Assembly: GCA_964590995.1 (NCBI GenBank)
Contig: CAZPYY010000002.1
Span: forward strand, 1 to 53,026
Length of the DNA: 53,026 nucleotides
Direction of reading: 5' to 3'
Source of the DNA: an uncultured Planctomycetia bacterium
GTDB taxonomy: Bacteria; Omnitrophota; Gorgyraeia; Duberdicusellales; 4484-171
In this document: piece after piece, positions 6,152 to 49,483 of the stretch
How the letters are laid out: every line of letters starts with the position of its first letter
Position numbering within the stretch: the first letter of the stretch is position 1
Made by a program: the position numbers and the translations under genes
The notes under the pieces: model-generated
Told to the model about the DNA's origin: nothing
Databases searched by the model: none
What the model saw: only the letters and a program-made list of their open reading frames with translations

Positions 6152-6152
6152 A

Positions 6153-7636: not shown

Positions 7637-7637
7637 T

Positions 7638-9735: not shown

Positions 9736-11387
9736 GCTTAGTTGAACAATTATTCAAGATTGATAACCTTTCCATTTTTGTAGGGATATTTATCGGAATA
9801 TTCTCCTTAGTGACAATTATCTATTCAGCAGGCTTTATGAAGAGAAGTAAGGGGCTGATTCGTTATTACCTATATATAGTCCTTACTCTCCTAGCTTCTT
9901 TAGGTGCTGTTTTCTCCAACAATCTTATTCTGTTTATGGTCTTCTGGGGCTTCCTAGGCCTGCTTTTATACCTTTTGATTAGTTTTGGCGAGAAAGAAAA
10001 TACTTCAGCTACAGCAAAGAAGGCTTTTATAATAATTGGCGGTACCGATGCCTTTATGATATTGGGTTTAGCCTTTGTCTGGAAGATCTCCGGAGCATTG
10101 CAGATGGATAAAATAACTATCGCCTTAAACAGCAAGATAGCTGTTTGGGCTTATCTTTGCCTTGCTGCTGGTGCTTTTGCTAAGGCTGGAGCCATGCCCT
10201 TTCATACTTGGGTTCCTGATACTGCCCAAGATGCACCCACTCCGGTAACTGCCTTCCTACCGGCTTCTTTAGATAAGCTTCTTGGTATTTACTTCTTAGC
10301 CAGATTATCTTTGAATATCTTTGAGATGGATAGTGGTATGAATACATTTTTAATGGTGGTGGGCAGCATTACTATTGTTGCTGCAGTTATGATGGCTCTA
10401 ATCCAGCATGATTTAAAGAGGCTTTTGGGCTATCATGCTGTAAGCCAGGTTGGGTATATGGTTTTGGGTATTGGTACTGGTAGCCTTTTAGGCATCGCTG
10501 GAGGCTTATTTCATATGCTTAATAACGCTATTTATAAATCCTGTTTATTTTTAGGCGGGGGTGCAGTTGAGAAGAAAGCAGGGACAAGTGATTTAGAAAA
10601 ATTAGGCGGGTTTGCTAAGATTATGCCTATTACTTTTGGAGCCTTCTTGTTGGCTTCTTTAGCTATATCCGGGATTCCGCCTTTTAACGGTTTTGCTTCT
10701 AAGTGGATGATTTATCAAAGCATAATCAATACAGCTAGTAGTGGTGGGTATCTCTGGGTAGTATGGCTTATTGCTGCTTTGTTTGGCAGTGCTCTTACCT
10801 TAGCGAGTTTTATGAAGCTGGTGCATGCTGTTTTCTTGGGCCAACCTTCTGGGGAAGAGAAGGCATTAAATAATAAGAGGGGTGAAACTACCCCGGCTAT
10901 GTGGATTCCTCAAGTTTCTCTGGCCCTTCTTTGTCTTATCTTTGGTGTATTTGCTTATCAAATACCGCTTAAGATATTTATCCTTCCTAGTTTAGGGGGC
11001 GAGGTTGAGTTCCTTGGAATTTGGAATGCAAGTTTGGCTACTGTATTAATAATTGTAGGAATTGTAATTGGTATGATAATTTACCTTTTAGGTAAGGTGA
11101 CTAAGGCAAGAGAAGTGGGCGGTTTTGTAGGAGGAGAGAATTTAGAGAAACATCCTCAGATGCGAATTTCCGGAACTGAATTTTACAACACAATTCAGGA
11201 AATGGGAATTTTAAAGATTATTTATGAACTGGCCAAGAAAAAGGTATTTGATCTTTATGATATAGGTAGAAGAGTAGCCTTTGTTTTTGTTAGAATACTG
11301 CGCTATATCCACAATGGTGTGCTCCCTACATATATGGCTTGGTGTCTTTTAGGTATGATAATACTTTTTTATGCTTTGCGAGGCTAG
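9732..11387 (+). CDS. mrpA: Antiporter-like subunit, MrpA N-terminal / NuoL family
   Basis: 551 aa polytopic protein. Contains the proton-conducting membrane transporter motifs HTWVPDTAQDAPTPVTA and LLGYHAVSQVGYM. Confidence 0.8.
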   Translation: MSLVEQLFKIDNLSIFVGIFIGIFSLVTIIYSAGFMKRSKGLIRYYLYIVLTLLASLGAVFSNNLILFMVFWGFLGLLLYLLISFGEKENTSATAKKAFIIIGGTDAFMILGLAFVWKISGALQMDKITIALNSKIAVWAYLCLAAGAFAKAGAMPFHTWVPDTAQDAPTPVTAFLPASLDKLLGIYFLARLSLNIFEMDSGMNTFLMVVGSITIVAAVMMALIQHDLKRLLGYHAVSQVGYMVLGIGTGSLLGIAGGLFHMLNNAIYKSCLFLGGGAVEKKAGTSDLEKLGGFAKIMPITFGAFLLASLAISGIPPFNGFASKWMIYQSIINTASSGGYLWVVWLIAALFGSALTLASFMKLVHAVFLGQPSGEEKALNNKRGETTPAMWIPQVSLALLCLIFGVFAYQIPLKIFILPSLGGEVEFLGIWNASLATVLIIVGIVIGMIIYLLGKVTKAREVGGFVGGENLEKHPQMRISGTEFYNTIQEMGILKIIYELAKKKVFDLYDIGRRVAFVFVRILRYIHNGVLPTYMAWCLLGMIILFYALRG

Positions 11388-11390
11388 ATA

Positions 11391-11939
11391 ATGGTTGAGC
11401 TATATATCTTACTAATATTTATGATTGTGGGAGCAATTGTTGCTACTGAGCTAAAAGATCTTCTATCTTCAGTAATAGCAGTTGGTGCTGTAGGCTTAGG
11501 GCTTTCCATAGTCTTTTTAATACTTAAAGCACCGGATGTAGCCATTACCCAGCTAGTGGTTGAAATATTGTGTTTGATTATTTTGATTCGAGCAACCCTA
11601 AAGAAAGATATTCCCTTTGCAACAACAGGTAGGTGGTTTTTAAATACGCTTATTACTGTTACTTTTATTACCATGTTTTTATTTGTCGCTGCAAAAGCCT
11701 TGAAAGAGTTGCCAAGTTTTGGTTATCCGATTATGAAGGTTGCTAAAACATACCTTGCTAATGGTTTACAACAGACTGGTGCAGCTAATGTTGTTTCTTC
11801 GGTAATATTAGATTTTAGGGCATATGATACCTTGGGTGAAGCCACGATATTATTCACTGCTGTAATTGGAGTCTTGGCCGTTGTGCGTAAAATCGGTAGA
11901 AAAAAACAAGATGAGACAATAGAGGAGGAAGATGAGTAG
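11391..11939 (+). CDS. MrpA C-terminal-like / MbhD-MbhE-like membrane subunit (DUF4040 plus MnhB-type segment)
   Basis: APDVAITQLVVE (DUF4040-like) and ILDFRAYDTLGEATILF (MnhB-like) motifs. Confidence 0.65.
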   Translation: MVELYILLIFMIVGAIVATELKDLLSSVIAVGAVGLGLSIVFLILKAPDVAITQLVVEILCLIILIRATLKKDIPFATTGRWFLNTLITVTFITMFLFVAAKALKELPSFGYPIMKVAKTYLANGLQQTGAANVVSSVILDFRAYDTLGEATILFTAVIGVLAVVRKIGRKKQDETIEEEDE

Positions 11940-12384
11940 AGAGCACGATAAGGGTATGTCAGTAATTGTTAAGACGATCACTCGTCTTACAATAGGACTA
12001 ATACTGCTCTATGGTATTTATATAGTCACTCATGGTCATGTATCACCGGGTGGAGGGTTTGCCGGAGGTGTTATTATAGCCCTTTCTTTTGTCCATCTTA
12101 TGTTAGCTTACGGTAAGGAAACTGCCCTGAAAAAGTTTCCTAAAGGCTTGGTTTCGTTCCTAGAGAGCACCGGTGCAGTAATGTTCTTAGCTATAGCTTT
12201 CCTGGGTTTTACTGGAGGATACTTTTTCTTAAATTTTATAAGTAAGGGAAAGCCCTACGAGTTATTTAGTGCCGGAATTATCCCTCTTTGTAATATAGCA
12301 ATATGTCTTAAGGTCGGTGCCGGACTTTTTGCAATATTTGTTGCCTTAGTCTTATTGAAATTAGAGTCAGAGGAGAAGAAATGA
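11932..12384 (+). CDS. mrpB: Mrp antiporter subunit B-like (MnhB/MbhF)
   Basis: 150 aa with 4 TM helices and an SPGGGFAGGV motif typical of MnhB domains. Confidence 0.7.
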   Translation: MSREHDKGMSVIVKTITRLTIGLILLYGIYIVTHGHVSPGGGFAGGVIIALSFVHLMLAYGKETALKKFPKGLVSFLESTGAVMFLAIAFLGFTGGYFFLNFISKGKPYELFSAGIIPLCNIAICLKVGAGLFAIFVALVLLKLESEEKK

Positions 12385-12725
12385 TAATATATTTGCTTTG
12401 TTTAATGCTTTTTTGCGTAGGGCTATATTGTATCTTACGAAAGCGTAATATTATTAAGATTATCGTTGGTGTCATTATATCTGAGTATGCAGCTAATCTG
12501 TTTTTTATCTTGGTAGCCTATCGTATTGGCGGCAGAGCTCCCATATTCTCATCTCAAGCAGATATCTCTGCTTCTACTATGGTCGATCCCTTACCGCATG
12601 CTTTGGTTCTTACAGCTATTGTTATTGGTTTAGCTACCACAGCTTTATTAGTTGCTATTGCTATGAGAATTTATGAAAAATATGGTACTTTTGATATTAC
12701 AAAAATTAGGGAGTTAAGAGGATGA
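12381..12725 (+). CDS. mrpC: Mrp antiporter subunit C / NuoK-like (MbhG)
   Basis: 114 aa with 3 TM helices. Size, position and the DPLPHALVLTAIVIG motif match MnhC/NuoK. Confidence 0.75.
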   Translation: MIIYLLCLMLFCVGLYCILRKRNIIKIIVGVIISEYAANLFFILVAYRIGGRAPIFSSQADISASTMVDPLPHALVLTAIVIGLATTALLVAIAMRIYEKYGTFDITKIRELRG

Positions 12726-14227
12726 TTCCAGGCATTAATACAATACCCCTTTTTGTGGCAATAGCCTTAGCCGGAGCTTTCTTAATTTCTCTGGCTGGTA
12801 AAAAAATAAAGTGGGTACCAGACACATTGGGGAATCTTACTACTTTTGCTTTACTTTGCCTCTCTATCTTTGCGGTGAAGCTCTCAGGTTCTCAGGGAAC
12901 TCTGGTTTATGGTGTTGGTTATTGGAATCCGCCAGTAGGCATAGCCATGGTTCTAGATGGCTTAACTTCATTTATGCTTGTTACTGTAAACCTAGTTGCT
13001 TTTATCATCTCGATCTATGCGATAAATTACATGGAGAAGTATACTTCAAAGTGGAAATTCTATACCTTGTTCCTTCTGATGTTAGCCGGAATGAATGGAG
13101 TAATTATTACCGGTGATATCTTTAATTTGTTTGTATTCTTAGAGATTGCTTCGGTAGCAAGTTATGCTTTGGTTGCTTTTGGAACTGAACGCCATGAGCT
13201 AGAAGCTGCTTTTAAGTATGCGGTTATGGGTACAGTAGGTTCACTATTTATTCTTCTGGGGATTGCCCTTTTATATAGCCGCACCTCTACCTTGAATATG
13301 GCTGATATGGGTAGTGTTTTAGCTGGGAAGGGAAGTACTGACTTGATTCGTTTGGTGAGCGTTTTATTCCTAATGGGTTTTGGTCTTAAAGCTGCCCTTG
13401 TCCCTTTTCATGCCTGGTTGCCTGATGCTCATCCTTCAGCACCGGCTCCGATATCCGCTATGCTTTCGGGAGTATTAATAAAATCTCTAGGTATCTATGC
13501 CTTGATTAGAATATTCTATAATGTAGTAGGGATGAGTCCTGAACTAGCCTCAATAATAATGCTTTTAGGAGCAATATCTATGGTTGTTGGTGGATTGCTG
13601 GCTTTAGGGCAATGGGATTTTAAACGGCTCTTAGCTTACTCTTCTATAAGCCAGGTAGGTTATATTGTTTTAGCTATTGGTCTTGGTACACCCTTGGGAA
13701 TATTAGCCGGGCTCTTTCATCTCTTTAACCACTCAATATTTAAGTCGTTATTATTTTTGAATTCAGGAGCAGTAGAATACTCTACCGGAACCCGAGATCT
13801 GCAGCAGATGGGCGGTTTAGGAAAGAAGATGCCCTTAACCGGCTTAACTAACCTAACAGCTTCTATGTCTATTGCCGGTGTTCCGCCCTTTAGTGGTTTC
13901 TGGAGTAAGCTATTTATTATAGTCGCAATAGTCCAAGCCGGTTACTATGGGTATGCTTTCTGGGCTGTTTTAGTGAGTGTGTTGACCTTGGCTATGTATG
14001 TTAAGGTTACCAAGTATGCTTTCTTTGGAACCTTGAAGGAGAAGTGGGAACAGATAAGAGAAGTACCTGCATTTATGAAGCTTTCAATGGCAATGTTAGC
14101 ATTCATTTGTTTAATAGGGGGAGTATTGCTTATTTCAGGGATAAAAGAGATTTTTCTGCAGCCGGCATCAAAAGCTCTCTTAGATGGCAGTAAGTATAGT
14201 AGTTTGGTTCTAAGTCAGGTGAAATAG
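12722..14227 (+). CDS. mrpD: Antiporter-like subunit MrpD / NuoM-N family (MbhH)
   Basis: 501 aa. Motifs FHAWLPDAHPSAPAPISA and LLAYSSISQVGYI. Confidence 0.85.
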   Translation: MIPGINTIPLFVAIALAGAFLISLAGKKIKWVPDTLGNLTTFALLCLSIFAVKLSGSQGTLVYGVGYWNPPVGIAMVLDGLTSFMLVTVNLVAFIISIYAINYMEKYTSKWKFYTLFLLMLAGMNGVIITGDIFNLFVFLEIASVASYALVAFGTERHELEAAFKYAVMGTVGSLFILLGIALLYSRTSTLNMADMGSVLAGKGSTDLIRLVSVLFLMGFGLKAALVPFHAWLPDAHPSAPAPISAMLSGVLIKSLGIYALIRIFYNVVGMSPELASIIMLLGAISMVVGGLLALGQWDFKRLLAYSSISQVGYIVLAIGLGTPLGILAGLFHLFNHSIFKSLLFLNSGAVEYSTGTRDLQQMGGLGKKMPLTGLTNLTASMSIAGVPPFSGFWSKLFIIVAIVQAGYYGYAFWAVLVSVLTLAMYVKVTKYAFFGTLKEKWEQIREVPAFMKLSMAMLAFICLIGGVLLISGIKEIFLQPASKALLDGSKYSSLVLSQVK

Positions 14228-14725
14228 ATGAAGAGCAGAGTAGTTTTATTTATAATCGCATTTTTAATCTGGTCCCTATTGAACTGGATACCGGATGCAC
14301 AACACCTTATAGTCGGAGTTTTTGTTGCTGCCCTTGTAGCCTTTTTAACCGGAGATTTATTTGTTACCCGGCCGCATGTATTACAGCATCCGTGGCGTTA
14401 CTGGTATTTCATTGCGCATTATTTGCCGGTATTTTTATTAGAAGTTGTGAAAGCCAATATTGATGTTGCTTATCGGGTATTACATCCTGATTTGCCGATA
14501 AATCCCGGAATTGTAAAGGTAAAAACAATTTTAAAGAGCGATACGGCTTTAACATTTTTGGCTAACTCGATAACTTTAACTCCTGGTACTATGAGTGTGG
14601 ATATAGACAGGGATAATGGTGTTTTATATATACACTGGATTAATGTGAAGGCAAAAGATATTGAAAGTGCTACAAAAATCATTGTCCAGCGCTTTGAAAA
14701 AATACTAAAGAAGATTTTTGATTAA
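14228..14725 (+). CDS. mrpE: Mrp antiporter subunit E (MnhE/MbhA)
   Basis: 165 aa with two N-terminal TM helices followed by a soluble domain. ANIDVAYRVLHP and SITLTPGT motifs are typical of MnhE. Confidence 0.7.
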   Translation: MKSRVVLFIIAFLIWSLLNWIPDAQHLIVGVFVAALVAFLTGDLFVTRPHVLQHPWRYWYFIAHYLPVFLLEVVKANIDVAYRVLHPDLPINPGIVKVKTILKSDTALTFLANSITLTPGTMSVDIDRDNGVLYIHWINVKAKDIESATKIIVQRFEKILKKIFD

Positions 14726-14735
14726 AGGGGATAAT

Positions 14736-15104
14736 ATGAAGATGTTTAGATGGATTGCTGGTGCGATAGTTTTAACGGGAATTATAGGTCTGATTATAAT
14801 TCGGCCGCTCCCTTTCCTTTTCTACGCTGATCTTCCTTATGTGAATTTCTTAGGCAGGGCTCTCTACATACTTATTTTAGCTTGTTTTTTGTGCCTCTAT
14901 CGTATCTATAGGGGGCCGACCGGTGCTGATCGGGTAGTGGCAATTGATATTTTGGGTATCATGATTGCTGGTTTGTGCGCAGTATTGACTATTTCTACTG
15001 GAAGGTCTTGGTATATTGATATTGGAATAGCCTGGGCTTTGCAGAGTTTTATAAGTACCTTAGCGCTCTCCAAATATTTAGAAGGAAGAGGGTTCGATGA
15101 GTAG
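14736..15104 (+). CDS. mrpF: Mrp antiporter subunit F (MnhF/MbhB)
   Basis: Three TM helices and a RIYRGPTGADRVVAID motif typical of MnhF. ATG 14736 follows AAGGGG at 14725-14730 and is preferred over the overlapping track start at 14718. Confidence 0.7.
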   Translation: MKMFRWIAGAIVLTGIIGLIIIRPLPFLFYADLPYVNFLGRALYILILACFLCLYRIYRGPTGADRVVAIDILGIMIAGLCAVLTISTGRSWYIDIGIAWALQSFISTLALSKYLEGRGFDE

Positions 15105-15432
15105 TATTATTGGTTTGGTATTTATTAGTTTAGGATTAGCTTTTGATCTTTTTGGTGTTTTAGGCTTAGTGCGCCTTCCCGATGTTTACAATCGTCTGCA
15201 GGCAGCTACAAAGTGTGTCACTTTAGGCACTTGCAGTATTCTATTCGGAACATTTCTTGTGGTTGGCCCGGTAGCATCAGGCATGAAAGCGCTCTTGTGT
15301 ATGGTCTTTTTACTATTAACCTCTCCGGTGGCTGCCCATGCTATAGCCAGAGGTGCGCATAGGGCAGGGGTAAAGCTTAGCAAAGAGAGCGTTGTAGATA
15401 AGTACTTGGAAGATAAAGAGGGAGAAGTGTAG
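15097..15432 (+). CDS. mrpG: Mrp antiporter subunit G (MnhG/MbhC)
   Basis: 111 aa. LVRLPDVYNRLQAATK and LTSPVAAHAIARGA motifs are typical of MnhG. Confidence 0.75.
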   Translation: MSSIIGLVFISLGLAFDLFGVLGLVRLPDVYNRLQAATKCVTLGTCSILFGTFLVVGPVASGMKALLCMVFLLLTSPVAAHAIARGAHRAGVKLSKESVVDKYLEDKEGEV

Positions 15433-15461
15433 TTTAAAAGGTTAAAGTTCAAAGTTAGAAG

Positions 15462-16076
15462 ATGCAAATGCGGTTACCAAAGATCAGAGAATTAACTGAA
15501 GCTATAAAAGCCCTTATAAAAGGGCCTTATACTTCAAAGTTTCCTATTGAGCCACACCAACCTCACCCTAATTTTAGAGGACAGCCCAAGTTTAACGACC
15601 AGAAGTGTGTGGGTTGCACTGCCTGTAAAGAGGTTTGTCCGGTAGAGGCGATTGATTATCAAGATGTTGTTGACGATAAGCTTAATCCGCGAAGAGTTAT
15701 GATTCACTATACTGATACCTGCATATTCTGCGGTCAGTGCGAAGCTGCTTGCATTGCCGATAATGAGGGTATCAAATTATCTAATGATTGGGAGCTTTCC
15801 TTCTTTGATCGCAGTAAAGCTGATGAGCGAATAGAGAAAGAGCTGCAACTCTGCGAGATTTGCGGCGAAGTTATTGCTTGTTGTGACCACCTAGAGTGGA
15901 TCGTTAAGAAGGTAGGAGAGCTTAGTTTTTCCAGCCCGACACTATATCTTCTACGTCTCAGGAGCTTAGGTATTGTAGACCAAAACATCATATCCGCCTT
16001 AGCCGATCAAGGACGCTCTGACCGGGTAAAGATTCTTTGTGCTAGCTGCAGAAGAAAGACCACCCTGACTATTTAA
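15462..16076 (+). CDS. 2x[4Fe-4S] ferredoxin subunit, NuoI/MbhN/HycF-like, with a Cys-rich C-terminal extension
   Basis: CVGCTACKEVCP and CIFCGQCEAAC motifs. The extra C-terminal region carries CEICGEVIACCDH and CASCRRK. Confidence 0.75.
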   Translation: MQMRLPKIRELTEAIKALIKGPYTSKFPIEPHQPHPNFRGQPKFNDQKCVGCTACKEVCPVEAIDYQDVVDDKLNPRRVMIHYTDTCIFCGQCEAACIADNEGIKLSNDWELSFFDRSKADERIEKELQLCEICGEVIACCDHLEWIVKKVGELSFSSPTLYLLRLRSLGIVDQNIISALADQGRSDRVKILCASCRRKTTLTI

Positions 16077-16081
16077 TTGAA

Positions 16082-16582
16082 ATGAGAACTAATTTGAAAG
16101 ATATACTTAAAGGAAAAATTGTTATCGTTGGTATCGGAAACATTATCCGCGGGGATGATGGCTTCGGACCTTTGCTGATTGAAAAGATAAAGGGTGGGGT
16201 TGAGATGATGTGTTTAGATGGCGGGATTGCTCCTGAGAATTACCTGGGCAAAATCACCAAAGAAAATCCCGATACGGTTTTAATTATTGATGCTGTTCAT
16301 CTAGGCAAGAATCCTGGTGAGTACGAGATTTTAAAGGGAGAAGATATAGCAAAGTGCGGATTCACTACTCATGATATCTCCCCGGTAATGTTTATAGAGT
16401 ATTTAACCAGAGAGACCGAGGCTAATATTTATATGCTTGGGGTTCAACCTCAAGGTATTGAATTAGGTTCAGAGATGTCCAATAAGCTTAAAACAGCATT
16501 AGAGGAACTATCAGGAAAAATTTTGGAGGCAGTCAATGCACGAGACTCACTTAATAAAACCGATAATCAAAGGCATAGTTAA
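16082..16582 (+). CDS. hycI: Hydrogenase maturation endopeptidase (HycI/HyaD family)
   Basis: VGIGNIIRGDDGFGP, IIDAV and the HD motif provide the metal ligands of this protease family. This fits the 35-aa C-terminal tail on the large subunit. Confidence 0.8.
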   Translation: MRTNLKDILKGKIVIVGIGNIIRGDDGFGPLLIEKIKGGVEMMCLDGGIAPENYLGKITKENPDTVLIIDAVHLGKNPGEYEILKGEDIAKCGFTTHDISPVMFIEYLTRETEANIYMLGVQPQGIELGSEMSNKLKTALEELSGKILEAVNARDSLNKTDNQRHS

Positions 16583-40890: not shown

Positions 40891-40897
40891 ATTTTTG

Positions 40898-41929
40898 ATG
40901 GAGTGCGAAGAGATTAAAAAAATAATCCCTAAGTATTTTCAACATACTGCTAGCGCTGAAGAAATTCAAGTAGTAGAAGAGCATCTTTGCGTCTGCCATG
41001 ATTGCCGCACGGTTTTGGGCGAGCTAATGGATAAGGCTTCAGAGGCTGAAGAGGCAGCAGAAGCTCATTCACAAGAGCAAGCAGAACCTCTTCCGAAAGA
41101 GAAGGCAAAGCCTCCTCTTGAGGAAGAGAAAGAGGAGCCTCCGAAAGAGAAGGCTGAAGAAAAGAAGGAAGAAGAGGTGCCAGCTCCTGGAGCCAAAGAG
41201 ATAGAGGAGAAGCGACCGGAGGAAAGTCCTGAGGAGCGAGGTCTCCCCAAAAAGGGACGTAGTGAAGGGGAAGAAGATTTGGAGTACTTCCCCGGAGAGG
41301 ATCTTGAGGCTTCAATGGATAAGGTTGATGATATTTTAGGAAAAACTGAACCAGCTAAGGGAGACTCCGGAGATAAACCCAAAGAAGTAGAACCTATTGC
41401 TCAGGATAAGGAAGAAGAGAAGGCGGAAGAGACAACAGAAGAAAAGGAAGAAGTATCCGAACCTATTTTAGAGGAAAAGGAAGATGAAGATTCTTCTTTT
41501 GAGATAATATCAGATTCTCCTGTAATCTCTAAACAGGAACTTCCTGCTGAGAGCGATATAGAAACTTTAGGCACAAAAGATCTTGAGCCGGTCGCAGAGG
41601 ATGCTAAAGAGCCTGAAGAAAAAACAGAGCTTCCTCCGGAAGAAGAGAAGGCGGAAGAGACAACAGAAGAAAAGGAAGAAGTATCCGAACCTTCATCAGA
41701 AACCGGCATAGAACTTAAAGAAGAGAAACCAGAAGAACCGGCGCCAAAAGAAGAAGGTGCGGTGTCTTTAGAAGAAGGTGGGGAGAGCCAGGAGTCATTA
41801 GAAGAGGTATCCCATTCTCTGGACGGGATGCCCTTAGAGAAGAGTAATGCAGGTCTTCTAGAGTACTTATGCTTAGTCGCTGGTTTGGGTGTTTTGGGAT
41901 TTCTAACCTATCTTCTTTTAAAAGGTTAA
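40898..41929 (+). CDS. zf-HC2 anti-sigma-factor-like protein with long acidic E/K/P-rich repeat region and C-terminal TM anchor
   Basis: N-terminal C..(x)..HLCVCHDC (H-x3-C-x2-C) putative zinc finger. About 270 aa of low-complexity acidic sequence follows. The C-terminus LLEYLCLVAGLGVLGFLTYLLL is a TM helix. Confidence 0.65.
   Translation: MECEEIKKIIPKYFQHTASAEEIQVVEEHLCVCHDCRTVLGELMDKASEAEEAAEAHSQEQAEPLPKEKAKPPLEEEKEEPPKEKAEEKKEEEVPAPGAKEIEEKRPEESPEERGLPKKGRSEGEEDLEYFPGEDLEASMDKVDDILGKTEPAKGDSGDKPKEVEPIAQDKEEEKAEETTEEKEEVSEPILEEKEDEDSSFEIISDSPVISKQELPAESDIETLGTKDLEPVAEDAKEPEEKTELPPEEEKAEETTEEKEEVSEPSSETGIELKEEKPEEPAPKEEGAVSLEEGGESQESLEEVSHSLDGMPLEKSNAGLLEYLCLVAGLGVLGFLTYLLLKG
41411..41464 (+). 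repeat. 54-bp perfect direct repeat, copy 1 (inside the anti-sigma-like CDS)
   Basis: GAAGAAGAGAAGGCGGAAGAGACAACAGAAGAAAAGGAAGAAGTATCCGAACCT is identical to 41639-41692. It encodes EEEKAEETTEEKEEVSEP. Confidence 0.9.
41639..41692 (+). repeat. 54-bp perfect direct repeat, copy 2
   Basis: Identical base-for-base to 41411-41464 and 228 bp apart, so the two copies are in frame. Confidence 0.9.
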
Positions 41930-41933
41930 TCCA

Positions 41934-42665
41934 GTGAAGTTTATATTTCTTGGCATTGTGCAGGGGATAACCGAGTTCCTGCCGATAAGTAGTTCCGGGC
42001 ATCTATTTCTCATACAAAAATTACTAAAAATAGAGGGAGATCTTCTTCCTTTTTTTGTTTTTCTGCACTTAGCAACACTTCTAGCTATAATTGTCTTTCT
42101 TTTTAAGAAGATCAAACTATTTTTTAAAGCAAGACCTCTGTTGAATATTCTTCTAATCACCTTAATAAGCGGAATTATGGGATTAGGGATTAGATTTTAT
42201 CTTAAGGAGTTCTTGGGCAGTACATTTATGCTAACTTTCTGCTTTTTAACTAATGCCGGAATATTGCTTAGCATCCGGCCTTCTTCGGGGGAAAGAAATA
42301 TTAGTAGCATAAATTTTAAAGATGCTCTTTTTTTAGGCTTCTTGCAGGGGTTTTCTCCCTTGCCGGGTATATCCCGTTCCGGCATTACTATTGCCGGATT
42401 ATTAAGAAGAGGCTTTAAGCGCAGCGAAGCTTTTATTCTCTCTTTTTTAATGGCAATCCCTCTTATCATCGGTGCTTTTTTTGTTGAGTTTAAAGAATTG
42501 GGTCAGAGTAATCTTTCTTTGCAAAATATGGGCTTGGGGCTTGTAGCTGCTTTTGTTTTCGGATTATTGGCTTTAAGTTTGGTTAGGAAAACCTTAATAA
42601 GTAAGAAGTTTAAAAACTTCGCTTATTATTGTTTAATATTGGCTTTACTTACTCTAATCGTATGA
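41934..42665 (+). CDS. uppP: Undecaprenyl-diphosphate phosphatase
   Basis: GITEFLPISSSGH and PGISRSG motifs. 243 aa polytopic protein. GTG start. Confidence 0.85.
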   Translation: MKFIFLGIVQGITEFLPISSSGHLFLIQKLLKIEGDLLPFFVFLHLATLLAIIVFLFKKIKLFFKARPLLNILLITLISGIMGLGIRFYLKEFLGSTFMLTFCFLTNAGILLSIRPSSGERNISSINFKDALFLGFLQGFSPLPGISRSGITIAGLLRRGFKRSEAFILSFLMAIPLIIGAFFVEFKELGQSNLSLQNMGLGLVAAFVFGLLALSLVRKTLISKKFKNFAYYCLILALLTLIV

Positions 42666-43378
42666 GAATTCAGATTAAAATAAAAGAGGGGGTAGCAATT
42701 TTAGAGCTAGAAGGCAGTATTGGCATTGATGCCTCAGACTTTGTTGAGACTGTAGGCTGGGTTCTTAACCATCAGACCAAAGATATCATTTGTAATTTTG
42801 AAAGCGTAAACTTGGTTGACTACGTAGGAGTATCTTTGATCTCAGTTATATACAAGAATATCTTAAACCACAAGGGAAGAATTGAGCTATACAATGTTCC
42901 TTCGCATGTAATGAGGTTATTCTCAATTGTTGGCCTGGATAGAATATTTAAATTCCATATTAGCGAAGAGCAGGCCTTAGAAGCGATTAAGCATGAGCGA
43001 GAGATGGAACGGCTAGCTAATGAGCCTTTAAGGAGGAGATTTGAACGGATACCTTTTAACGCTACTATTGAATACAGGCAAAAACTTCTCAAGGACCAAC
43101 CATTCTATAAGGGCAAGATAGTAAATCTAAGCGCTGAAGGGGTATTTATCGTTAGCGATAAGATATTTTCGATAGGAGATTTATTGGCTACCCGAATAAA
43201 TCTTCAGCCTCAGCCAGGAATTATAGAGGCCGATGTTAAGGTAGTTTGGCTAGCTGATAAAGAGATTCAGCCTGAGGATTATCCAGGGATGGGCTTAGAA
43301 TTTTACAATATAACTCCTGAAAAACAGGAGAAAATTGCCCAATTCGTAGAAAAGTATTTTACTCACCCCAGCCGTTAG
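42662..43378 (+). CDS. STAS (anti-sigma-factor antagonist) domain fused to a PilZ c-di-GMP-binding domain
   Basis: The N-terminal 110 aa or so are SpoIIAA-like (ILELEGSIG.., LVDYVGVSLI, RLFSIVGLDRIF). The C-terminal PilZ domain has both canonical motifs, RRFER (RxxxR) and NLSAEG ((D/N)xSxxG). ATG 42662 overlaps the uppP stop (ATGA). Confidence 0.75.
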   Translation: MRIQIKIKEGVAILELEGSIGIDASDFVETVGWVLNHQTKDIICNFESVNLVDYVGVSLISVIYKNILNHKGRIELYNVPSHVMRLFSIVGLDRIFKFHISEEQALEAIKHEREMERLANEPLRRRFERIPFNATIEYRQKLLKDQPFYKGKIVNLSAEGVFIVSDKIFSIGDLLATRINLQPQPGIIEADVKVVWLADKEIQPEDYPGMGLEFYNITPEKQEKIAQFVEKYFTHPSR

Positions 43379-44469: not shown

Positions 44470-44504
44470 AATGCAGAGATTATATCATAATTTTTACAAA
44501 TATG

Positions 44505-44513
44505 TGATATAAT
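44505..44513 (+). promoter_or_regulatory. Extended -10 element TGATATAAT (candidate promoter of the CBS/EF-G unit, about 130-nt leader)
   Basis: The same 9-mer occurs at 40882 and 48273. It lies in the divergent intergenic region. The -35 element is weak. Confidence 0.4.
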
Positions 44514-44649
44514 TTTACTTATTAACAAACTGTATCCCGTTTCGCTAAAGATGTGTCAAAATTCCCTGTGGTAATCTTGACACGCTCAACGGGATCAATT
44601 CGGCTACACGTTTTTTACAAAAAACGTAAGTCTCATTGAGGAGGTTCCA

Positions 44650-45108
44650 ATGCAGGTAAAGGATATAATGACTAAAGACCCGGTTGCTGTTACTCCGGCT
44701 ACAGATGTACATGCTTTAGCAGAGTTATTTGTTGAAAAGAATATAAACGGTGCTCCGGTAGTAGATGATAATGGTACCTTATTAGGCATTGTTCAGGAGG
44801 AAGGGGTAATCTTTCAGGATAAGAAGGTGCACTTGCCTACATTTTTACATATTTCCTTAGGGTTTCTGACCTTAGGGGTGAAGAAGTACGAAGAAGAGAT
44901 AAAAAAGGTTACTGCTACTAAAGTCGCTGATATTTTAGAAAAAGATATTGTTATCCTAAGCCCTGAGATGAGTGTTGAAGATGCTGCTACAGTTATGATT
45001 GAGAAGGCTAGTTATTACTGCCCAGTGGTAGAAGGAGAGAAATTAGTAGGGGTAATCACCAAGAAAGATGTCGTTCGTTCTATTGCCAGGGATCAGAGTT
45101 TAGAATAA
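44650..45108 (+). CDS. CBS-domain pair protein
   Basis: Two CBS motifs (IMTKDPVAV..APVVDDNGTLLGIV and VMIEKASYYCPVVEGEKLVGVITKKDV) separated by an inserted hydrophobic segment. Confidence 0.8.
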   Translation: MQVKDIMTKDPVAVTPATDVHALAELFVEKNINGAPVVDDNGTLLGIVQEEGVIFQDKKVHLPTFLHISLGFLTLGVKKYEEEIKKVTATKVADILEKDIVILSPEMSVEDAATVMIEKASYYCPVVEGEKLVGVITKKDVVRSIARDQSLE

Positions 45109-45124
45109 GCTTCTCTAAAACATA

Positions 45125-48100
45125 ATGATTATTTTTGCCTCAATACTTATTGCTTCAGCCATAATTCTTGTTGTCTACTCTTTAAACAGCGAAGATGTCA
45201 AAGATGCCAGGAAAAAGGCTAAGGAAAAAGCCCAAGCCCGGGCTGCTGAGAAGAGATTTTTAAATCTAACCGAAAAAAGCCAATCCCTAAGAAAAAAAGC
45301 TTTTGAATATAAGAACAGAATAGCTTCTTTAGAGAAGATTGAGGCTCGTAGCATTGCTATGCAAAAGGAGCTCGAGAGTTTAAGGAAAAAAGAAGCAGAG
45401 TTGCGGGAACAGAATAAGCAGAGTAAGAAGTGGCTTATCTATCAGCAAAATCTCTTAAAAAAAGAAAAAGGACCAGAATCGGAGTCTAAAAAGAAGCTCC
45501 TAGAGAAAGAAAAAGAGTTAGAGAAGGAATTCACCAAGAACGTAAACTTAAAAAGAGAAATTTCAGAAGCTCAGAGAGAGATAAAGTCTCAAGAGAAAGA
45601 TATCAAAATATTAAAGGATGAAAAGACCGCCTTAGAGAAGAAAATTAAATCTGCTGACGAAAGGATGGCCAGGGTCGTAGGTGATTTACGGGCCCAGAAG
45701 GAAGAAGTAGCAAAGTTAAAGAAAAAAGCGAAGGAGAGCGGCTGGGTCTCTAAAGAAGAGTACAATAATTTAGCTGAGGGGAGAGATGAGCTAAAGCAGC
45801 AGCTAGAAATCCGGAAGAAAGAAGTAGAGCTAAAAGATAAGGAGATAGAGGAAAAAGATAAGGAGAGGATGCGTTTGGCTCATCAGCTTAAAGAGCAAGG
45901 TATAGAACCAATAGTCGAAGTTTCTATTGAGGAAGAGAAGTTAAAAGAAGAAGAGGGGGTAGTAGAGGAAGTTATTCAGGTTGAGGAAGAAGTGCTTAAA
46001 GAAGAAGCTAGGGTAGAAGAAGGCAAAGAGGTATCAGGGGAAGAAGAAGTATCTTCTCAAGAAGATAAAGAGAAGGTTAAAGAAAAGCCCAAAAAACGAC
46101 CGGAGGAAGCCCCGCCAAAAGCGGGGGAAGAACCCTCTCCGGTTAGAAAGAATGACCTAGCCAAGTTACGTAATATCGGAATTATGGCCCATATCGATGC
46201 CGGGAAGACCACCTTAACCGAGAGGATCCTCTTTTATACCGGCCGTTCCCATAAGATCGGTGAAGTGCATGACGGTGCTGCCCAAATGGATTGGATGAAG
46301 CAGGAACAGGAGCGGGGAATTACTATTACCTCAGCTGCTACTACTTGTATCTGGCAGGATTGCCGGATTAGTATTATTGATACTCCCGGACACGTTGATT
46401 TTACTGCTGAGGTTGAAAGGAGTTTAAGGGTCTTAGATGGGGCAATAGCAGTATTTTGTGCTGTCGGAGGGGTTGAGCCTCAATCAGAGACGGTCTGGCG
46501 TCAATCCAATAAATATGAAGTACCTAAAATTGCTTTTGTAAATAAGATGGACCGTATGGGTTCAGATTTTTTTGCGGTTTTAGAGAGTATTGAGAAAGAA
46601 TTAGGCGCTAATGCTTTGGCTTTGCAGATTCCGATTGGGGCTGAGGAGAGTTTTAAAGGAGTAATTGATCTTATTGCTATGAAAGCCTACATCTATGAGG
46701 ACGACACCCTGGGAAAGGATTTCAAAGTTGAGGAGATCCCCCAAGAACATAAGGATATCTGCGATAAATATCGGCACATTCTGGTAGAGAAGGCTGCAGC
46801 TGGGGATAATGTTCTTACTGAAAAGTACTTAAAAGATGAGAAGCTAATTACTGAAGATGAGTTAAAAAGGGCTATTCGCAAGGGAACAATAGCCCGCAGG
46901 ATTGTTCCGGTGCTTTGCGGCTCAGCTTTTAAAAATAAGGGAGTCCAAAATCTTCTTGATGCTGTGACTCTTTATCTTCCCTCACCCTTAGATATTCTAC
47001 CAATACAAGGCCATGATCCTAGTGATTCGGAGAATAAGCTCCAGCGTAAGCCATCGGACCAGGAGCCTTTCTCAGCCTTAGCTTTTAAGATCCAGGCTGA
47101 TCAACATATTGGCAAGTTGGTTTATATCCGGGTCTACTCCGGATATTTAAAAGCTGGAACTTATGTATACAATGCTACTAAGGAGAGGAAGGAGAGGGTC
47201 GGAAGAATTGTGCAGATGCATGCTAACCAGCGTGAGAATTTAGATGCTGTTTTTACCGGAGATATCGCAGCAGCAGTTGGTTTAAGCAGCACTTTAACCG
47301 GAGATACCCTTACGGCTTTAGATAGCCCGATTATTCTTGAGTCAATTGAATTCTCCGAACCAGTAATCTCAATCAGCATTAAACCAGAGAGTGGAAGCGA
47401 GCAGGATAAGTTAAGTAAAGGCTTAGCTAAGTTATCTGAGGAAGACCCTACTTTTAAGGCTCATATAGATGAGGAGACCTCAGAGACCATCCTTTCAGGG
47501 ATGGGTGAACTACATTTAGAGATAATCGTAGATAGATTAAAAGAAGAATTTAAGGTTAACGCCACCGTTGGTCAGCCTAAGGTAGCCTATAAAGAGGCAA
47601 TGCTCGGCAGCGTAACTGAGGAGTATAAGCATATAAAGCAGAGTGGAGGCCGAGGCCAATATGGCCATGTGGTGATTGAACTCTCACCGAATGCTGCTGG
47701 AGAAGGCTTTGAATTTGAAGATGCTATTACTGGCGGTGCTATCCCGAGAAATTACATCCCGGCTGTTGAAAAAGGAATCATTGAAGCTATGAAACACGGC
47801 CCTTATGCTGGTTATCCAGTAGCAGATGTAAAGGTAAAATTAGTTGATGGTTCTTACCATGAGGTTGATTCATCAGAGTTAGCTTTTAAGCTAACCGCCA
47901 GGAGTTGTTTTAAGAACGCTTTTATGAAGTGTGACCCAATATTACTTGAGCCTTGCATGGAGTTAGAAATAAATACTCCTGATGAATACGCTAGCAACCT
48001 TGTCGGCTATGTCTGTTCTAAACGCGGAAAAATCCTCGGTATGGAGACCAAAGGAACTCAAAAAACAATCGTAGCTGAGGCCCCATTATCAGAGATGTTC

Positions 48101-48238
48101 GGTTATGTTACTAATATGCGTTCTTTAAGTAGTGGCCGAGCTAATTGCTCTATGCACTTTAAAAAATACACCCAAGTTCCCAAAGAAATAGCTAAGAAGA
48201 TAATCGAGGAAAAAGAAGAAGCCAAAAAGAAGGATTAA
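45125..48238 (+). CDS. fusA: Elongation factor G family GTPase with a 340-aa N-terminal extension (TM helix plus K/E-rich coiled coil)
   Basis: From about residue 345 this is a full EF-G: AHIDAGKTT (G1), DTPGHVDF (G3), NKMD (G4), domain [11 protein letters not shown], domain V. Residues 1-20 ([20 protein letters not shown]) are hydrophobic. Residues 25-340 have heptad-like, charged coiled-coil composition. Confidence 0.8.
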
Positions 48239-48289: not shown

Positions 48290-49483
48290 ATGGATAAAAT
48301 CAAGAAGATCTTGATCGTATCTTCAGATAGCAAGCTTAAGGATGTACTTAATTTTTGCTTTGATGGCTGGGGATATGAGGTCTTCTTAAAAGAACCCTCG
48401 CCAAGTTCAGATATCGAAAAAATCAAGAAAGTCTCTCCTGACGTTATCGTGGTTGATGTTCAAACAGCCAGTAAAGAACAACTTGATATCTGCAGAAATC
48501 TAAAAAAAGACTTTGCTACTGCTTTTATTCCGGTAATAACTTTGATTAACAAACGCCACTTGCGGGCTCAGCTCCTAAGCCTTGAGCAGGGCGTAGATGA
48601 TTATCTTATTAAGCCGCCAGACCCTCTGGATTTACGAATCAGAATTGAAATGTCAATAAGAAGGGCAAAACATAGCATTCATGCTAGCTCCCTAACCGGT
48701 CTTCCTGGAGGAAAAATCCTTGAAGATATGCTCAAGGAGAGACTAGGCTTTGGTGCGCCTTTTTCCTTTGCTTACGTAGATATTGATGATTTCAAGTCTT
48801 TTAATGATGTTTACGGGTATCGCAGGGGAGATAAGGTAATTTTACAGACTGCTTACTTATTATCTATAACCTTAAAAGATTTTGGCAATAGCGATGATTT
48901 TATCAGCCATATTGGCGGTGATGACTTTGCTTTTATTACTACTCCTGATAAATATGAGAGGATTTGTAAGAATTTTATTAATTTTTTTGATAATATTATT
49001 CCTTTTCACTACTCAGCTAGTGACCGTACCAAGGGTTTTGTCATGGCTAGGGATCGGGCCCGGAAGATAAAGAAGTCACCCTTGATGAGTGTATCTATTG
49101 CTGTGTTTAATAAAGATGACTCTTCTAAAGTAAAGAGTATTATTGAGGTCAATGAGCGGATTGCTGAGATAAAGAGATTCTTAAAGACAATCCCTGAGAG
49201 TATATTTATGGCTGAGCGAAGGGATTCGGTTTCTTTTGCTAATAAGGTACCCCAAGTTAATAAGAAGGCCCTAACTTACCCTTACCAACCCTTAGGCCAG
49301 ATATTGCTTCAGAAGCAGGTAATCTCTTATGAACAATTAGATGAGGCTTTGAATGTGCATTGGAAGAAGGGGGTAGTATTGGGTGAAGTTCTTAAAGAAC
49401 TGGGTTTTGTCAGTGATCAGCAGCTACAAGAGGCTTTAAACGTCCAGCGGGTTAATCTTTCTGATTCAGCCCTTAAGAATTAA
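48290..49483 (+). CDS. Response-regulator receiver plus GGDEF-family domain (GGDDF variant) plus C-terminal T2SSE_N/MshEN-like domain
   Basis: REC features: VVDV acceptor Asp, PVITL, DDYLIKP. GGDEF fold: DIDDFKSFNDVYGYRRGD..HIGGDDFAFI. The C-terminal tandem LGQILLQKQVISYEQLDEAL / LGEVLKELGFVSDQQLQEAL resembles the MshEN c-di-GMP-binding repeat. Confidence 0.7.
   Translation: MDKIKKILIVSSDSKLKDVLNFCFDGWGYEVFLKEPSPSSDIEKIKKVSPDVIVVDVQTASKEQLDICRNLKKDFATAFIPVITLINKRHLRAQLLSLEQGVDDYLIKPPDPLDLRIRIEMSIRRAKHSIHASSLTGLPGGKILEDMLKERLGFGAPFSFAYVDIDDFKSFNDVYGYRRGDKVILQTAYLLSITLKDFGNSDDFISHIGGDDFAFITTPDKYERICKNFINFFDNIIPFHYSASDRTKGFVMARDRARKIKKSPLMSVSIAVFNKDDSSKVKSIIEVNERIAEIKRFLKTIPESIFMAERRDSVSFANKVPQVNKKALTYPYQPLGQILLQKQVISYEQLDEALNVHWKKGVVLGEVLKELGFVSDQQLQEALNVQRVNLSDSALKN

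Follow-up and report, generated by a model that had tools for sequence, protein, structure and literature searches.

The locus examined here, from the Omnitrophota, a phylum of very small bacteria, raises the question of how elongation factor G (EF-G), regarded as diffusing freely through the cytosol, might come to be attached to a membrane, and of what an EF-G so attached would do. Within the 53,026-nucleotide stretch of DNA that was analyzed (termed here the window), a forward-strand gene at 45125..48238 (+), supported by the list of open reading frames, by homologs and by independent contigs, encodes a 1037-residue protein, starting with an ATG at 45125 and ending with a stop codon at 48236-48238. 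From the N- to the C-terminus, this protein consists of a transmembrane (TM) helix, a basic patch, a coiled coil of about 235 residues, about 85 residues of acidic, proline-rich disorder and a five-domain EF-G, with an extension of 344 residues lying ahead of the EF-G module. A first-pass annotation of the window had described it as an EF-G attached to the membrane through a TM helix, a coiled-coil stalk and an acidic linker. Structure prediction bears this description out, as do independent assemblies, sequence conservation and selection: a single polypeptide joining an EF-G of the EFG-I type to a lineage-specific membrane module is genuine. No description of an EF-G with a membrane anchor, a coiled-coil stalk and an acidic tether was found in the literature. 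The reading favored here, with a probability of roughly 0.6, is that the protein is a catalytically intact EF-G mounted on a membrane module, is likely a second paralog beside the fusA of the str operon, and acts under the membrane.

The membrane module begins with an N-terminal anchor (residues 1-21; 45125..45187, +), which is modeled by AlphaFold2 (AF2) as a helix spanning residues 2-20; residues 1-20 indeed form the hydrophobic segment proposed earlier, with a Kyte-Doolittle mean of 2.7. Among 102 homologs the median number of residues before the TM helix is 1, and lysines plus arginines average 0.02 before the helix versus 6.1 within the 25 residues after it. By the positive-inside rule the anchor is predicted to be oriented with its N-terminus outside and its C-terminus inside the cell. 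The basic juxtamembrane patch that follows (residues 22-44; 45188..45256, +) is variable in sequence, its richness in lysine and arginine being kept in nearly all homologs; residues 21-35 have low pLDDT in the full-length AF2 model.

Overlapping this patch is a long coiled coil (residues 23-205; 45191..45739, +), which AF2 models as a single helix of about 27 nm, with pLDDT above 90 across residues 40-200 in the model of the extension. Its hydrophobic residues recur with a period of 3.50 (power 2.18, versus 0.44 at the 99th percentile of shuffled sequences), and it can be aligned across the phylum with few gaps. Three conserved motifs stand out. The first, R-x-x-W-[VL]-x-K, centers on Trp103 (45431..45433, +), which is near-invariant (at least 90% conserved among 65 full-length homologs) and which is also invariant in six distant stand-alone members of the family to which the extension belongs. 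Within the second, K128-E-K-E-L-x-x-E-F-[ST]-K-N-V140 (45506..45544, +), the homolog alignment shows K128, E129 and K138 to be invariant and N139 and V140 to be at least 90% conserved. The third, S205-x-W207-V-S-K210-x-E-[YF]-x-x-L216 (45737..45772, +), is near-invariant and falls at the one point (residues 206-209) where the helix of the AF2 extension model is interrupted, so that it is termed here the kink motif; its W-V pair is invariant in small stand-alone relatives. Beyond the kink, both the AF2 models and a period of about 3.5 indicate a second helix (residues 210-257; 45752..45895, +) of about 7 nm, which brings the combined coiled coil of about 235 residues to about 34 nm. Through this coiled coil the stalk is probably a dimer or a trimer.

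The remainder of the extension is a disordered tether (residues 258-344; 45896..46156, +), identified by its composition and by pLDDT below 50 in both AF2 models, which has a net charge of -16, consists of 34% glutamate, shows no periodicity and has a contour length of about 30 nm. Over the homologs its composition averages 27% glutamate, 13% lysine and 12.5% proline, with a mean net charge of -10; its length differs widely among them, and it aligns poorly, with many indels. The K/E-rich, heptad-like stretch of about 320 residues suggested by the first-pass annotation is thus only partly upheld: a coiled coil and an acidic, proline-rich linker are both present, but, according to AF2 and to the periodicity analysis, heptads do not extend over 320 residues.

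The EF-G module itself (residues 345-1037; 46157..48235, +) is complete by Pfam, TIGR00484 and Foldseek, and here the Pfam result and the list of open reading frames agree with the earlier claim of a 1037-residue frame ending in all five domains. Each of the Pfam models GTP_EFTU (residues 347-620), EF-G_D2 (648-731), EFG_III (743-816), EFG_IV (818-936) and EFG_C (940-1025) scores above its cut-off, which places the G domain at 46163-46984, domain II at 47066-47317, domain III at 47351-47572, domain IV at 47576-47932 and domain V at 47942-48199 (all +). Across 65 homologs there is no variation in the G1/P-loop AHIDAGKT (residues 355-362; 46187..46210, +), in the DTPGH motif with the switch II histidine H423, or in the tip loops of domain IV, G841-G842-x-G844-Q845-Y846 and H912-x-V-D-S-S. 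The TIGR00484 equivalog model, which has a cut-off of 659.4 bits, is matched at 1054.8 bits over positions 3-690 of its 691. Likewise, the module scores 870 bits to Thermus thermophilus EF-G and shares 55-60% identity with the EF-Gs of many phyla (56% with a Staphylococcus-type EF-G). AF2 models it with pLDDT mostly of 85-95, and Foldseek aligns it to ribosome-bound EF-G with TM scores of 0.81-0.90 (E = 1e-94).

Where this GTPase belongs among EF-G1, EF-G2, the Tet proteins and LepA had been left for follow-up; family models place it within EFG-I and put the other families below their cut-offs. The EF-G2 models NF009377 and NF058620 give 474.6 bits versus 890 and 496.4 versus 1000, respectively; the Tet(M)/Tet(O) model gives 400.7 versus 775; and the LepA model, which matches the G domain only, gives 163 versus 534. 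Individual sequences behave similarly, with 356 bits to T. thermophilus EF-G2 (1wdt) and 495-593 bits to mitochondrial factors. Judged by its sequence, the module is of the canonical EFG-I type and catalytically intact.

Compared with canonical EF-G as defined by TIGR00484, the fusion shares the five domains, the GTPase motifs, the domain IV tip loops and the predicted fold, but differs in three respects: canonical EF-G is soluble and about 700 residues long, whereas the fusion carries the 344-residue extension of TM helix, coiled coil and tether; its gene is never found in the str operon, where EF-G typically sits between rpsG and tuf; and it has, lineage-wide, 14 signature substitutions at positions that are near-universal in canonical EF-Gs. 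Because a Kiritimatiellae EF-G (L014) has six of these 14 residues, the signatures may partly reflect PVC ancestry rather than paralog specialization.

Several known systems resemble parts of this arrangement. Like the fusion, the RNA-machinery enzyme RNase Y of Bacillus subtilis has a single N-terminal membrane helix, with a coiled coil or a disordered stretch behind it; the design logic is the same, but the sequences are unrelated, and the catalytic domain and the process are different. RNase Y genes with a TM and coiled-coil N-terminus are themselves present in the same Omnitrophota loci. LepA/EF4 and FtsY, the N-terminal domain of which is acidic, are translation-apparatus GTPases found at the membrane, which they bind peripherally and reversibly, whereas the fusion has an integral TM helix and a stalk. 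The best sequence match in the PDB is an N-terminal L9-EF-G chimera on the 70S ribosome (4wpo, 4wqf, 4wqu and others), an artificial crystallization construct that has no membrane anchor but that shares with the Omnitrophota protein the property of being fused at the N-terminus of EF-G. Since this chimera binds the 70S ribosome, where the EF-G N-terminus is free, an N-terminal fusion need not prevent binding to the ribosome. A division of labor between EF-G copies also has precedents: Pseudomonas aeruginosa has two EFG I paralogs, EF-G1A, encoded in the str operon, and EF-G1B, encoded elsewhere, which divide translocation and a recycling-type role between them, the str-operon EF-G1A being a poor translocase (PMC3832671). 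This pair shows that two canonical-type EF-Gs can occur in one genome, a coexistence that in Omnitrophota is inferred; the two P. aeruginosa proteins are soluble, about 700 residues long and 84% identical to each other, whereas the Omnitrophota copy encoded outside the str operon has a membrane anchor. With EF-G2, with spdEFG1/2 and with mtEF-G1/mtEF-G2, the favored reading shares the idea of a sub-functionalized copy, although the Omnitrophota module falls far below the EF-G2 cut-offs.

Whether the fusion is a second EF-G or the only one is the question on which its interpretation chiefly turns. It is quite probable that it is a second, membrane-anchored paralog, because the order S12-S7-EF-G-EF-Tu-S10 has been described in several complete Omnitrophota chromosomes (10.64898/2026.06.07.730766; an unreviewed preprint in which EF-G lengths are not given) and because one lineage has the extension alone. 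The alternative is that the fusion is the sole housekeeping EF-G, all elongation and recycling being membrane-tethered, which would be tolerable given a reach of 35-60 nm; this is unlikely. In its favor, the module passes TIGR00484 with a wide margin, evolves at the slow pace of a housekeeping gene (dN/dS 0.07) and keeps its catalytic and tip residues invariant; the geometry of its reach permits such a role; no other Omnitrophota EF-G was retrieved among the matches listed and the loci examined; and in P. aeruginosa the active translocase is the copy outside the str operon (PMC3832671). Against it, the preprint puts EF-G between S7 and EF-Tu, and the long form never adjoins rpsG, which lies upstream in 0 of 36 long-form loci (those with at least 600 nucleotides of upstream sequence) versus 72 of 79 canonical EF-G loci of other phyla, a control set taken from among the matches listed in a contig scan. 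Moreover, between MgsA and PPIase, at a slot where the nearest relatives have the fused gene, one clade has the extension alone, and therefore another EF-G must exist in that clade; extension-only lineages could have a fused copy elsewhere. The 14 substitutions at near-universal positions likewise argue against a sole EF-G.

The idea of a specialized paralog, raised by the first-pass annotation, thus becomes the likelier reading on the strength of the preprint and of the extension-only loci, but a canonical fusA and a long form were not seen in one genome among the matches listed in the contig scan, which used universal EF-G peptides and whose listed matches include at least one Omnitrophota long form (L006) and at least 79 EF-Gs of canonical type from other phyla. 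L007, which among the canonical EF-Gs resembles the long forms most closely, belongs to Thermosulfidibacter/Aquificota and hence was rejected as an Omnitrophota second copy. Searches by tblastn with S12, S7 and EF-Tu probes gave no matches in the Omnitrophota loci examined; the published supplementary tables examined in a search for the EF-G of V. archaeovorus hold no EF-G entries; and viral contigs yielded nothing but one fragment of an ordinary S12-S7-EF-G operon and unrelated EF-Gs of 28-55% identity.

As for what the anchored EF-G would do, the fusion putatively works as an ordinary ribosome-dependent GTPase, catalyzing translocation, RRF-dependent recycling or both. The stalk and tether would confine it to a shell reaching roughly 35-60 nm under the cytoplasmic membrane; and, because it would be confined to this shell and is probably a dimer or trimer on its coiled coil, it would serve, and concentrate, ribosomes that are translating near the membrane. 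Omnitrophota cells are about 0.2 µm across (PMC10066038). At a cell radius of 100 nm, a reach of 34-60 nm corresponds by computation to 71-94% of the volume, so that in such cells the modeled shell would make up most of the cytoplasm. A bolder proposal, which is doubtful, is that the tethered EF-G is the principal translocase, that the stand-alone extensions form a membrane scaffold for translation and that the str-operon copy is relegated to recycling, on the pattern of EF-G1A in P. aeruginosa; if this were true, coiled-coil stalks with EF-G heads would organize bulk Omnitrophota protein synthesis on the inner face of the membrane.

Rather improbably, the membrane form might instead be a precursor or a store, from which proteolysis of the linker frees EF-G, or a tether that sequesters EF-G, with any ribosomes bound to it, at low activity; its role would then lie in regulation or hibernation instead of local catalysis. 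Because the linker is long, disordered and variable, it would be accessible to proteases; LepA/EF4, a GTPase related to EF-G, has been reported to be stored at the membrane; and the adjoining c-di-GMP genes hint at a regulated physiology. No cleavage motif is conserved in the linker, however, which aligns poorly, and the neighboring genes are not conserved across the family.

This last point can be seen from the 41 long-form loci, over which the neighbors of the fusion gene vary. In the window, the upstream neighbor encodes a 152-residue CBS-pair protein (44650..45108, +; Pfam CBS). As had been noted, this gene ends at 45108, 16 nucleotides before the ATG of the fusion; the structured leader that had been placed ahead of the fusion gene lies instead upstream of the CBS gene, where its fold is moderately better than those of shuffled sequences (z = -2.65) and where no Rfam match was found. 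A CBS gene lies upstream in 6 of the 41 loci, close relatives only, and is absent at L003, L086, L002 and L087; it is a lineage-specific neighbor that stands outside the fusion system. Genes for c-di-GMP signaling (RR-GGDEF and STAS-PilZ) adjoin the fusion gene in the window's lineage.

The first-pass annotation had suggested looking for the architecture of the fusion in relatives, and more than 120 homolog clusters, those with names being Omnitrophica/Omnitrophota, share the extension and the EF-G and keep both length and order of parts. Homologs of 1000-1080 residues cover 99-100% of the 1037-residue protein, and only a few of the best 120 clusters lack the architecture, each of those inspected being a truncated or mis-started long form. 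A 696-residue homolog (P0033) was considered as a short canonical copy and was rejected, its frame being open to the contig edge. From metagenomes, a degenerate DNA pattern based on the K128-V140 motif retrieved 33 further long-form loci; altogether the fusion was seen in 40 further loci from many samples, in 36 of which an ATG immediately precedes the TM helix. Purifying selection acts on all four regions: dN/dS stands at 0.07 in both the TM helix and the EF-G, at 0.10 in the helical region and at 0.15 in the linker. No RNA-seq run was found to contain the locus.

It is very hard to credit that translation begins internally to give an ordinary soluble EF-G, the 344 codons ahead of it belonging to a separate gene or staying untranslated though in frame. 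Two in-frame alternative starts, an ATG at residue 249 and a GTG at residue 290, 65 codons ahead of G1 (residue 355), are indeed located as had been reported, and no Shine-Dalgarno (SD) motif precedes the ATG at 45125. The absence of this motif was rejected as an argument against that ATG, such motifs being rare: of the window's 42 genes, 29 lack one. Apart from M354, which itself lies within the G1 region, the window has no start codon in the 64 codons ahead of G1; and over the 40 loci internal starts are scattered, none being conserved in position and only one having an SD motif. The position of the canonical EF-G start holds P, V, L or I, and never Met, across the homologs, and the frame through the extension and linker stays open and under selection (dN/dS 0.10-0.15) down to 53% identity. 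A shorter soluble isoform, on which the first-pass annotation had kept an open mind, thus finds no support. The notion that misassembly or a frameshift brought fusA together with a coiled-coil gene, for which 46000-46150 had been singled out, can be dismissed, since contigs from independent runs of two studies (X1 and X2) match 44900-46201 and 44900-46406 across the junction with 0 mismatches and 0 gaps and since the fusion recurs in the 40 further loci.

The extension also has a life of its own. A profile built from it retrieves 417 cluster representatives (213 at E ≤ 1e-10), mostly stand-alone proteins of 200-320 residues; stand-alone members of 210-400 residues carry the extension motifs. 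Membership of this family is defined here by an N-terminal TM helix followed by a coiled coil with, in order, W103-, E-[FY]-S-x-N- and W-V-S-K-x-E-[YF]-type motifs; the fused extension has all of these, and the motifs are near-invariant in fused forms. Extension-only genes are likewise under purifying selection, with dN/dS ratios of 0.10-0.14. The extension is, in other words, an autonomous Omnitrophota membrane coiled-coil family that also occurs unfused. Even with relaxed thresholds, Pfam returned nothing for the extension beyond coiled-coil noise below the cut-offs, RNase_Y_N (PF12072) failing to match at E ≤ 10, and Foldseek matched the extension model to no PDB entry; the sole name in cluster look-ups of the family is the automatic label 'chromosome segregation ATPase'. 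What this family does is hinted at solely by its fusion to EF-G, which by 'Rosetta-stone' logic suggests that the family probably acts with ribosomes or translation factors.

Public annotation calls the long forms simply 'elongation factor G', and pipelines that use TIGR00484 as a single-copy marker may get two matches in Omnitrophota genomes. More generally, a phylum-wide integral-membrane EF-G would, to our knowledge, be the first core elongation factor whose range within the cell is limited by a covalent anchor. For the organisms themselves, it would provide a handle on how translation is organized in cells about 0.2 µm across and a natural experiment on the limits to EF-G diffusion.

The fusion gene is a forward-strand open reading frame of 1037 codons (45125-48238), which begins 16 nt after the end of a CBS-pair gene. 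Its first 20 residues are strongly hydrophobic; residues 1-346 gave no match in a Pfam scan; and the remainder carries the EF-G domains GTP_EFTU (residues 347-620), II (648-731), III (743-816), IV (818-936) and C (940-1025). Within the extension (i.e., residues 1-344, N-terminal to the EF-G module), in-frame start codons occur at M79, TTG93, M181, M249, TTG251 and GTG290; between GTG290 and M354, which itself lies inside the G1 region, there are none. The EF-G, the hydrophobic segment, the spacing from the CBS gene and the alternative starts of the first-pass annotation are thus all in place. Six metagenome runs from marine or seawater samples, drawn from two studies, contain 76-99% of the 31-mers sampled from the locus, and contigs from two runs, X1 (2114 bp) and X2 (2336 bp), match 44900-46201 and 44900-46406, respectively, with no mismatches and no gaps, spanning the CBS gene, the entire extension, the linker and the P-loop. 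Because these contigs cross 46000-46150 intact, a chimera arising there through an assembly join or frameshift is excluded. Other contigs in runs X1, X3 and X4 share the sequence from 46172 onward and differ upstream (...[TA]RQ[VI]ELK[RK]VR followed by NIGIMAH); these probably represent co-occurring related long-form genes with a conserved G1 region in common.

The same architecture recurs in relatives: when 5.8 billion clustered proteins were searched, the best 120 matches had 53-100% identity, and nearly all of them were 1000-1080 aa long, with 99-100% coverage of the query. The few homologs with names are annotated 'elongation factor G [Candidatus Omnitrophica/Omnitrophota bacterium]'; assignment to Omnitrophota is based on this handful of named matches and on one SAG title. 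Shorter homologs are truncations (e.g., the 696-aa homolog P0033 is open to the contig edge). In 102 homologs the median distance from the N-terminus to the start of the hydrophobic helix is one residue, with 0.02 lysines plus arginines before it and 6.1 in the 25 residues after it, while the sequence of the helix itself diverges freely.

A shorter, soluble isoform made from an internal start, as the first-pass annotation had envisaged, could draw on the in-frame codons within the extension and on the lack of a Shine-Dalgarno motif at 45125. This lack means little, however, because 29 of the 42 window genes also have none, and the related loci argue against such an isoform. At 36 of the 40 loci with DNA an ATG lies directly ahead of the transmembrane (TM) helix; more than half of the 40 have no in-frame start in the last 45 codons before G1; where such starts are found, they fall at scattered positions, with a Shine-Dalgarno motif ahead of just one; and the position of the canonical EF-G initiator methionine is occupied by P, V, L or I in long forms. 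Nei-Gojobori estimates of dN/dS relative to an 84%-identical relative (0.07 in both the TM helix and EF-G, 0.10 in the helical region and 0.15 in the linker) indicate that selection acts on the full-length protein. In a comparison of 45125-48238 with the related locus L005, dS was 0.58 for the EF-G module, much below the 1.3-1.6 of the extension, of which codon-usage constraint or recombination could be the cause.

The anatomy of the extension was derived from an alignment of 27 diverse extensions and from two AlphaFold2 models, which agree. A TM helix (residues 2-20) is followed by a basic, poorly ordered patch (22-44), a single very long predicted helix (23-205; pLDDT above 90 over 40-200), a kink (206-209), a second helix (210-257) and a disordered segment of about 85 residues (258-344); the full-length model further breaks the long helix at 113-118. 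Core-type hydrophobic residues within 23-205 show a periodicity of 3.50 residues (power 2.18, versus a shuffle 99th percentile of 0.44) and negligible power at 3.6, so that this region bears the signature of a coiled coil rather than merely of an amphipathic helix. Hence the coiled coil of the first-pass annotation stands, at about 235 rather than 320 aa, the remaining 85 or so residues being an acidic tether. Net charge is +17 over the helical part and -16 over the linker, which across homologs is 27% Glu, 13% Lys and 12.5% Pro and highly variable in length (the extension as a whole ranges from 304 to 489 aa). Near-invariant motifs are W103, K128-E-K-E-L-x-x-E-F-[ST]-K-N-V140 and, at the helix kink, S205-x-W-V-S-K-x-E-[YF]-x-x-L216. 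Searches of the extension against Pfam at E ≤ 10 returned coiled-coil noise only, and its model matched no PDB structure.

By each sequence and fold test applied, the C-terminal module belongs to the EFG I family. It scores 1054.8 bits against the TIGR00484 equivalog model (cut-off 659.4) and fails the EF-G2, Tet, LepA, BipA and RF3 models; PDB sequences rank likewise, with T. thermophilus EF-G at 870 bits, E. coli EF-G at 847, mitochondrial EF-G1 at 593, T. thermophilus EF-G2 at 356 and Tet(M) at 238. Alignment of 65 homologs shows complete conservation of the P-loop, of DTPGH in switch II, of the domain IV loops (SGGRGQYG and H912-x-VDSS) and of many residues besides, and the predicted structure aligns with ribosome-bound EF-G at TM-scores up to 0.90. 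Because the top PDB sequence match, an engineered L9-EF-G N-terminal chimera, is bound to the 70S ribosome, N-terminal attachment is sterically compatible with ribosome binding. The module nevertheless stands slightly apart: its identity to canonical EF-Gs, which average 64% among themselves across phyla, is 57-59%, and 14 signature residues, conserved in at least 95% of long forms, occur in fewer than 10% of 99 canonical EF-Gs, including changes at otherwise almost universal positions (A to S461, R to K468, Q to E787, Q to K819 and Q to S1003). Part of this signature may reflect PVC ancestry, since an EF-G outside the str operon in a Kiritimatiellae MAG (locus L014) has 6 of the 14. That 696-aa protein (1286-3376), adjoining an HMG-CoA-reductase-like gene, is possibly related to the module without being fused. 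IMG/VR contigs of up to 481 kb classed as viral (L088-L106) also carry full-length EF-G genes, with 44-55% identity to the module; these contigs may represent large mobile elements or cellular DNA that was binned wrongly.

As the distribution of its parts shows, the fusion joins two independent units. A degenerate DNA pattern for the central extension motif, run against metagenomes, retrieved 33 further fused genes and five complete extension-only genes. Four of the latter (loci L116, 994-1947; L141, 2379-3299, forward after reverse-complementing the locus; L146; and L151) form a clade with 59-70% mutual identity and 51-64% identity to the nearest fused forms; their proteins retain the TM helix together with all three motifs and the acidic/Pro tail, and end there. 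They are under purifying selection (dN/dS 0.10-0.14) and lie between MgsA and PPIase-UvrD genes, a slot in which the nearest fused relatives, P0079 and P0092, have the full fusion. The fifth, L152, is from a different lineage, and the gene after it is radical-SAM-like and unrelated. An extension profile run against 1.84 billion cluster representatives matched 417 proteins at E ≤ 1e-3 (213 at 1e-10), mostly stand-alone proteins of 200-320 aa; among them is a coherent subfamily of about 210-235 aa whose members terminate some 20 residues past the W-V-S-K-x-E-[YF] motif. No curated name was found for these stand-alone proteins, and in none of the four neighbourhoods inspected, which are variable, does fusA lie beside them. 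Unfused homologs (membrane-anchored coiled coils of about 210-400 aa) include, besides the five extension-only genes, P0196, P0205, P0217, P0225, P0250 and P0270. Five proteins of 529-724 aa (P0204, P0237, P0254, P0264 and P0207) match the profile over the TM helix and first coiled-coil segments and, by eye, continue into repeated coiled-coil units, an MshEN-like and a PilZ-like domain; they may be membrane-anchored c-di-GMP receptors.

The fusion protein has neither the typical EF-G context nor the soluble 700-aa form. Window translations, read by eye, include hydrogenase, LPS, cobalamin and c-di-GMP genes and no ribosomal-protein genes. None of the 36 long-form loci with at least 600 nt upstream (41 loci in all) has rpsG there, whereas with the same S7 probe rpsG adjoins 72 of 79 canonical EF-G genes from many phyla; recurrent upstream neighbours among the 41 are MgsA/RarA (16), YqeY (7) and CBS (6). 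That the fusion protein is the organism's sole EF-G is the strongest rival to a division of labour between two factors. Against it, the extension-only clade keeps a linker-like tail and has no EF-G part, so that its EF-G must come from another gene, and a 2026 preprint on 176 complete Omnitrophota genomes places S12-S7-EF-G-EF-Tu-S10-L3 contiguously in several chromosomes. Among the Omnitrophota sequences listed by the searches of this analysis, no such str-operon gene was found. From the unreviewed preprint, which makes no mention of a long or membrane-anchored EF-G, and from the extension-only lineage, coexistence of two EF-Gs in one genome is judged likely (roughly 0.75-0.8).

Other features of these loci may be recorded here. 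The window lineage has c-di-GMP-related flanks (STAS-PilZ upstream, 42629-43378; response-regulator-GGDEF directly downstream, 48290-49483), the downstream gene being kept in only 5 of the 41 loci. The leader before the CBS gene (44470-44649; MFE -34.7 kcal/mol, z = -2.65; no Rfam match) contains two hairpins, including a near-perfect ACGUUUUUUAC/AAAAAACGU palindrome, and a strong GGAGG precedes the CBS start. Nearly all window genes lie on the forward strand; by eye, 4309-16582 resembles a membrane-bound hydrogenase/Mrp-type complex and 40895-41929 appears to encode an anti-sigma-like protein with a long E/K/P-rich segment. Locus L237 has, beyond the PPIase gene that lies downstream of its fused EF-G, an open reading frame of at least 2509 aa without a Pfam match (5523-12624), in keeping with reports of giant proteins in Omnitrophota.

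No description of a membrane-anchored EF-G was found in literature searches on EF-G and membrane anchoring, coiled coils or Omnitrophota; the words membrane, transmembrane and coiled are absent from a broad survey of translational GTPase diversity; and public long-form sequences, where named, are called only 'elongation factor G'. In design, the closest parallels are RNase Y, with a TM helix, a coiled coil and an enzyme, and two GTPases with peripheral membrane association, LepA and FtsY. The architecture is classed as a new, phylum-wide one for EF-G, resting on a family of membrane coiled-coil proteins not described previously.

An integral-membrane-type N-terminus, a basic patch, a coiled coil, an acidic tether and an intact EF-G constitute one protein under selection. 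By the positive-inside rule, its N-terminus would lie outside and the remainder in the cytoplasm, where GTP and ribosomes are located. Because the predicted coiled coil (27 nm + 7 nm) is probably a dimer or trimer, two or three EF-G heads would sit on each stalk, and these heads, on a tether of about 31 nm contour length, would search a shell roughly 35-60 nm beneath the membrane; the tether's negative charge should hold it away from both anionic lipids and rRNA. The diameter of Omnitrophota cells is about 0.2 µm (PMC10066038), and for a cell radius of 100 nm a reach of 34-60 nm covers a computed 71-94% of the volume, so that tethering would bias access to ribosomes without forbidding it. Storage of EF-G, or its proteolytic release, would be a less likely use of the same design. 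As a working translation factor, the tethered EF-G would carry out the usual EF-G reactions, whether translocation, RRF-dependent recycling or both, on ribosomes close to the membrane; for comparison, in P. aeruginosa the EF-G encoded outside the str operon has 75-fold higher activity (PMC3832671). The supply of factor would thereby be enriched at sites making membrane and secreted proteins, and a soluble str-operon EF-G would serve the remaining ribosomes.
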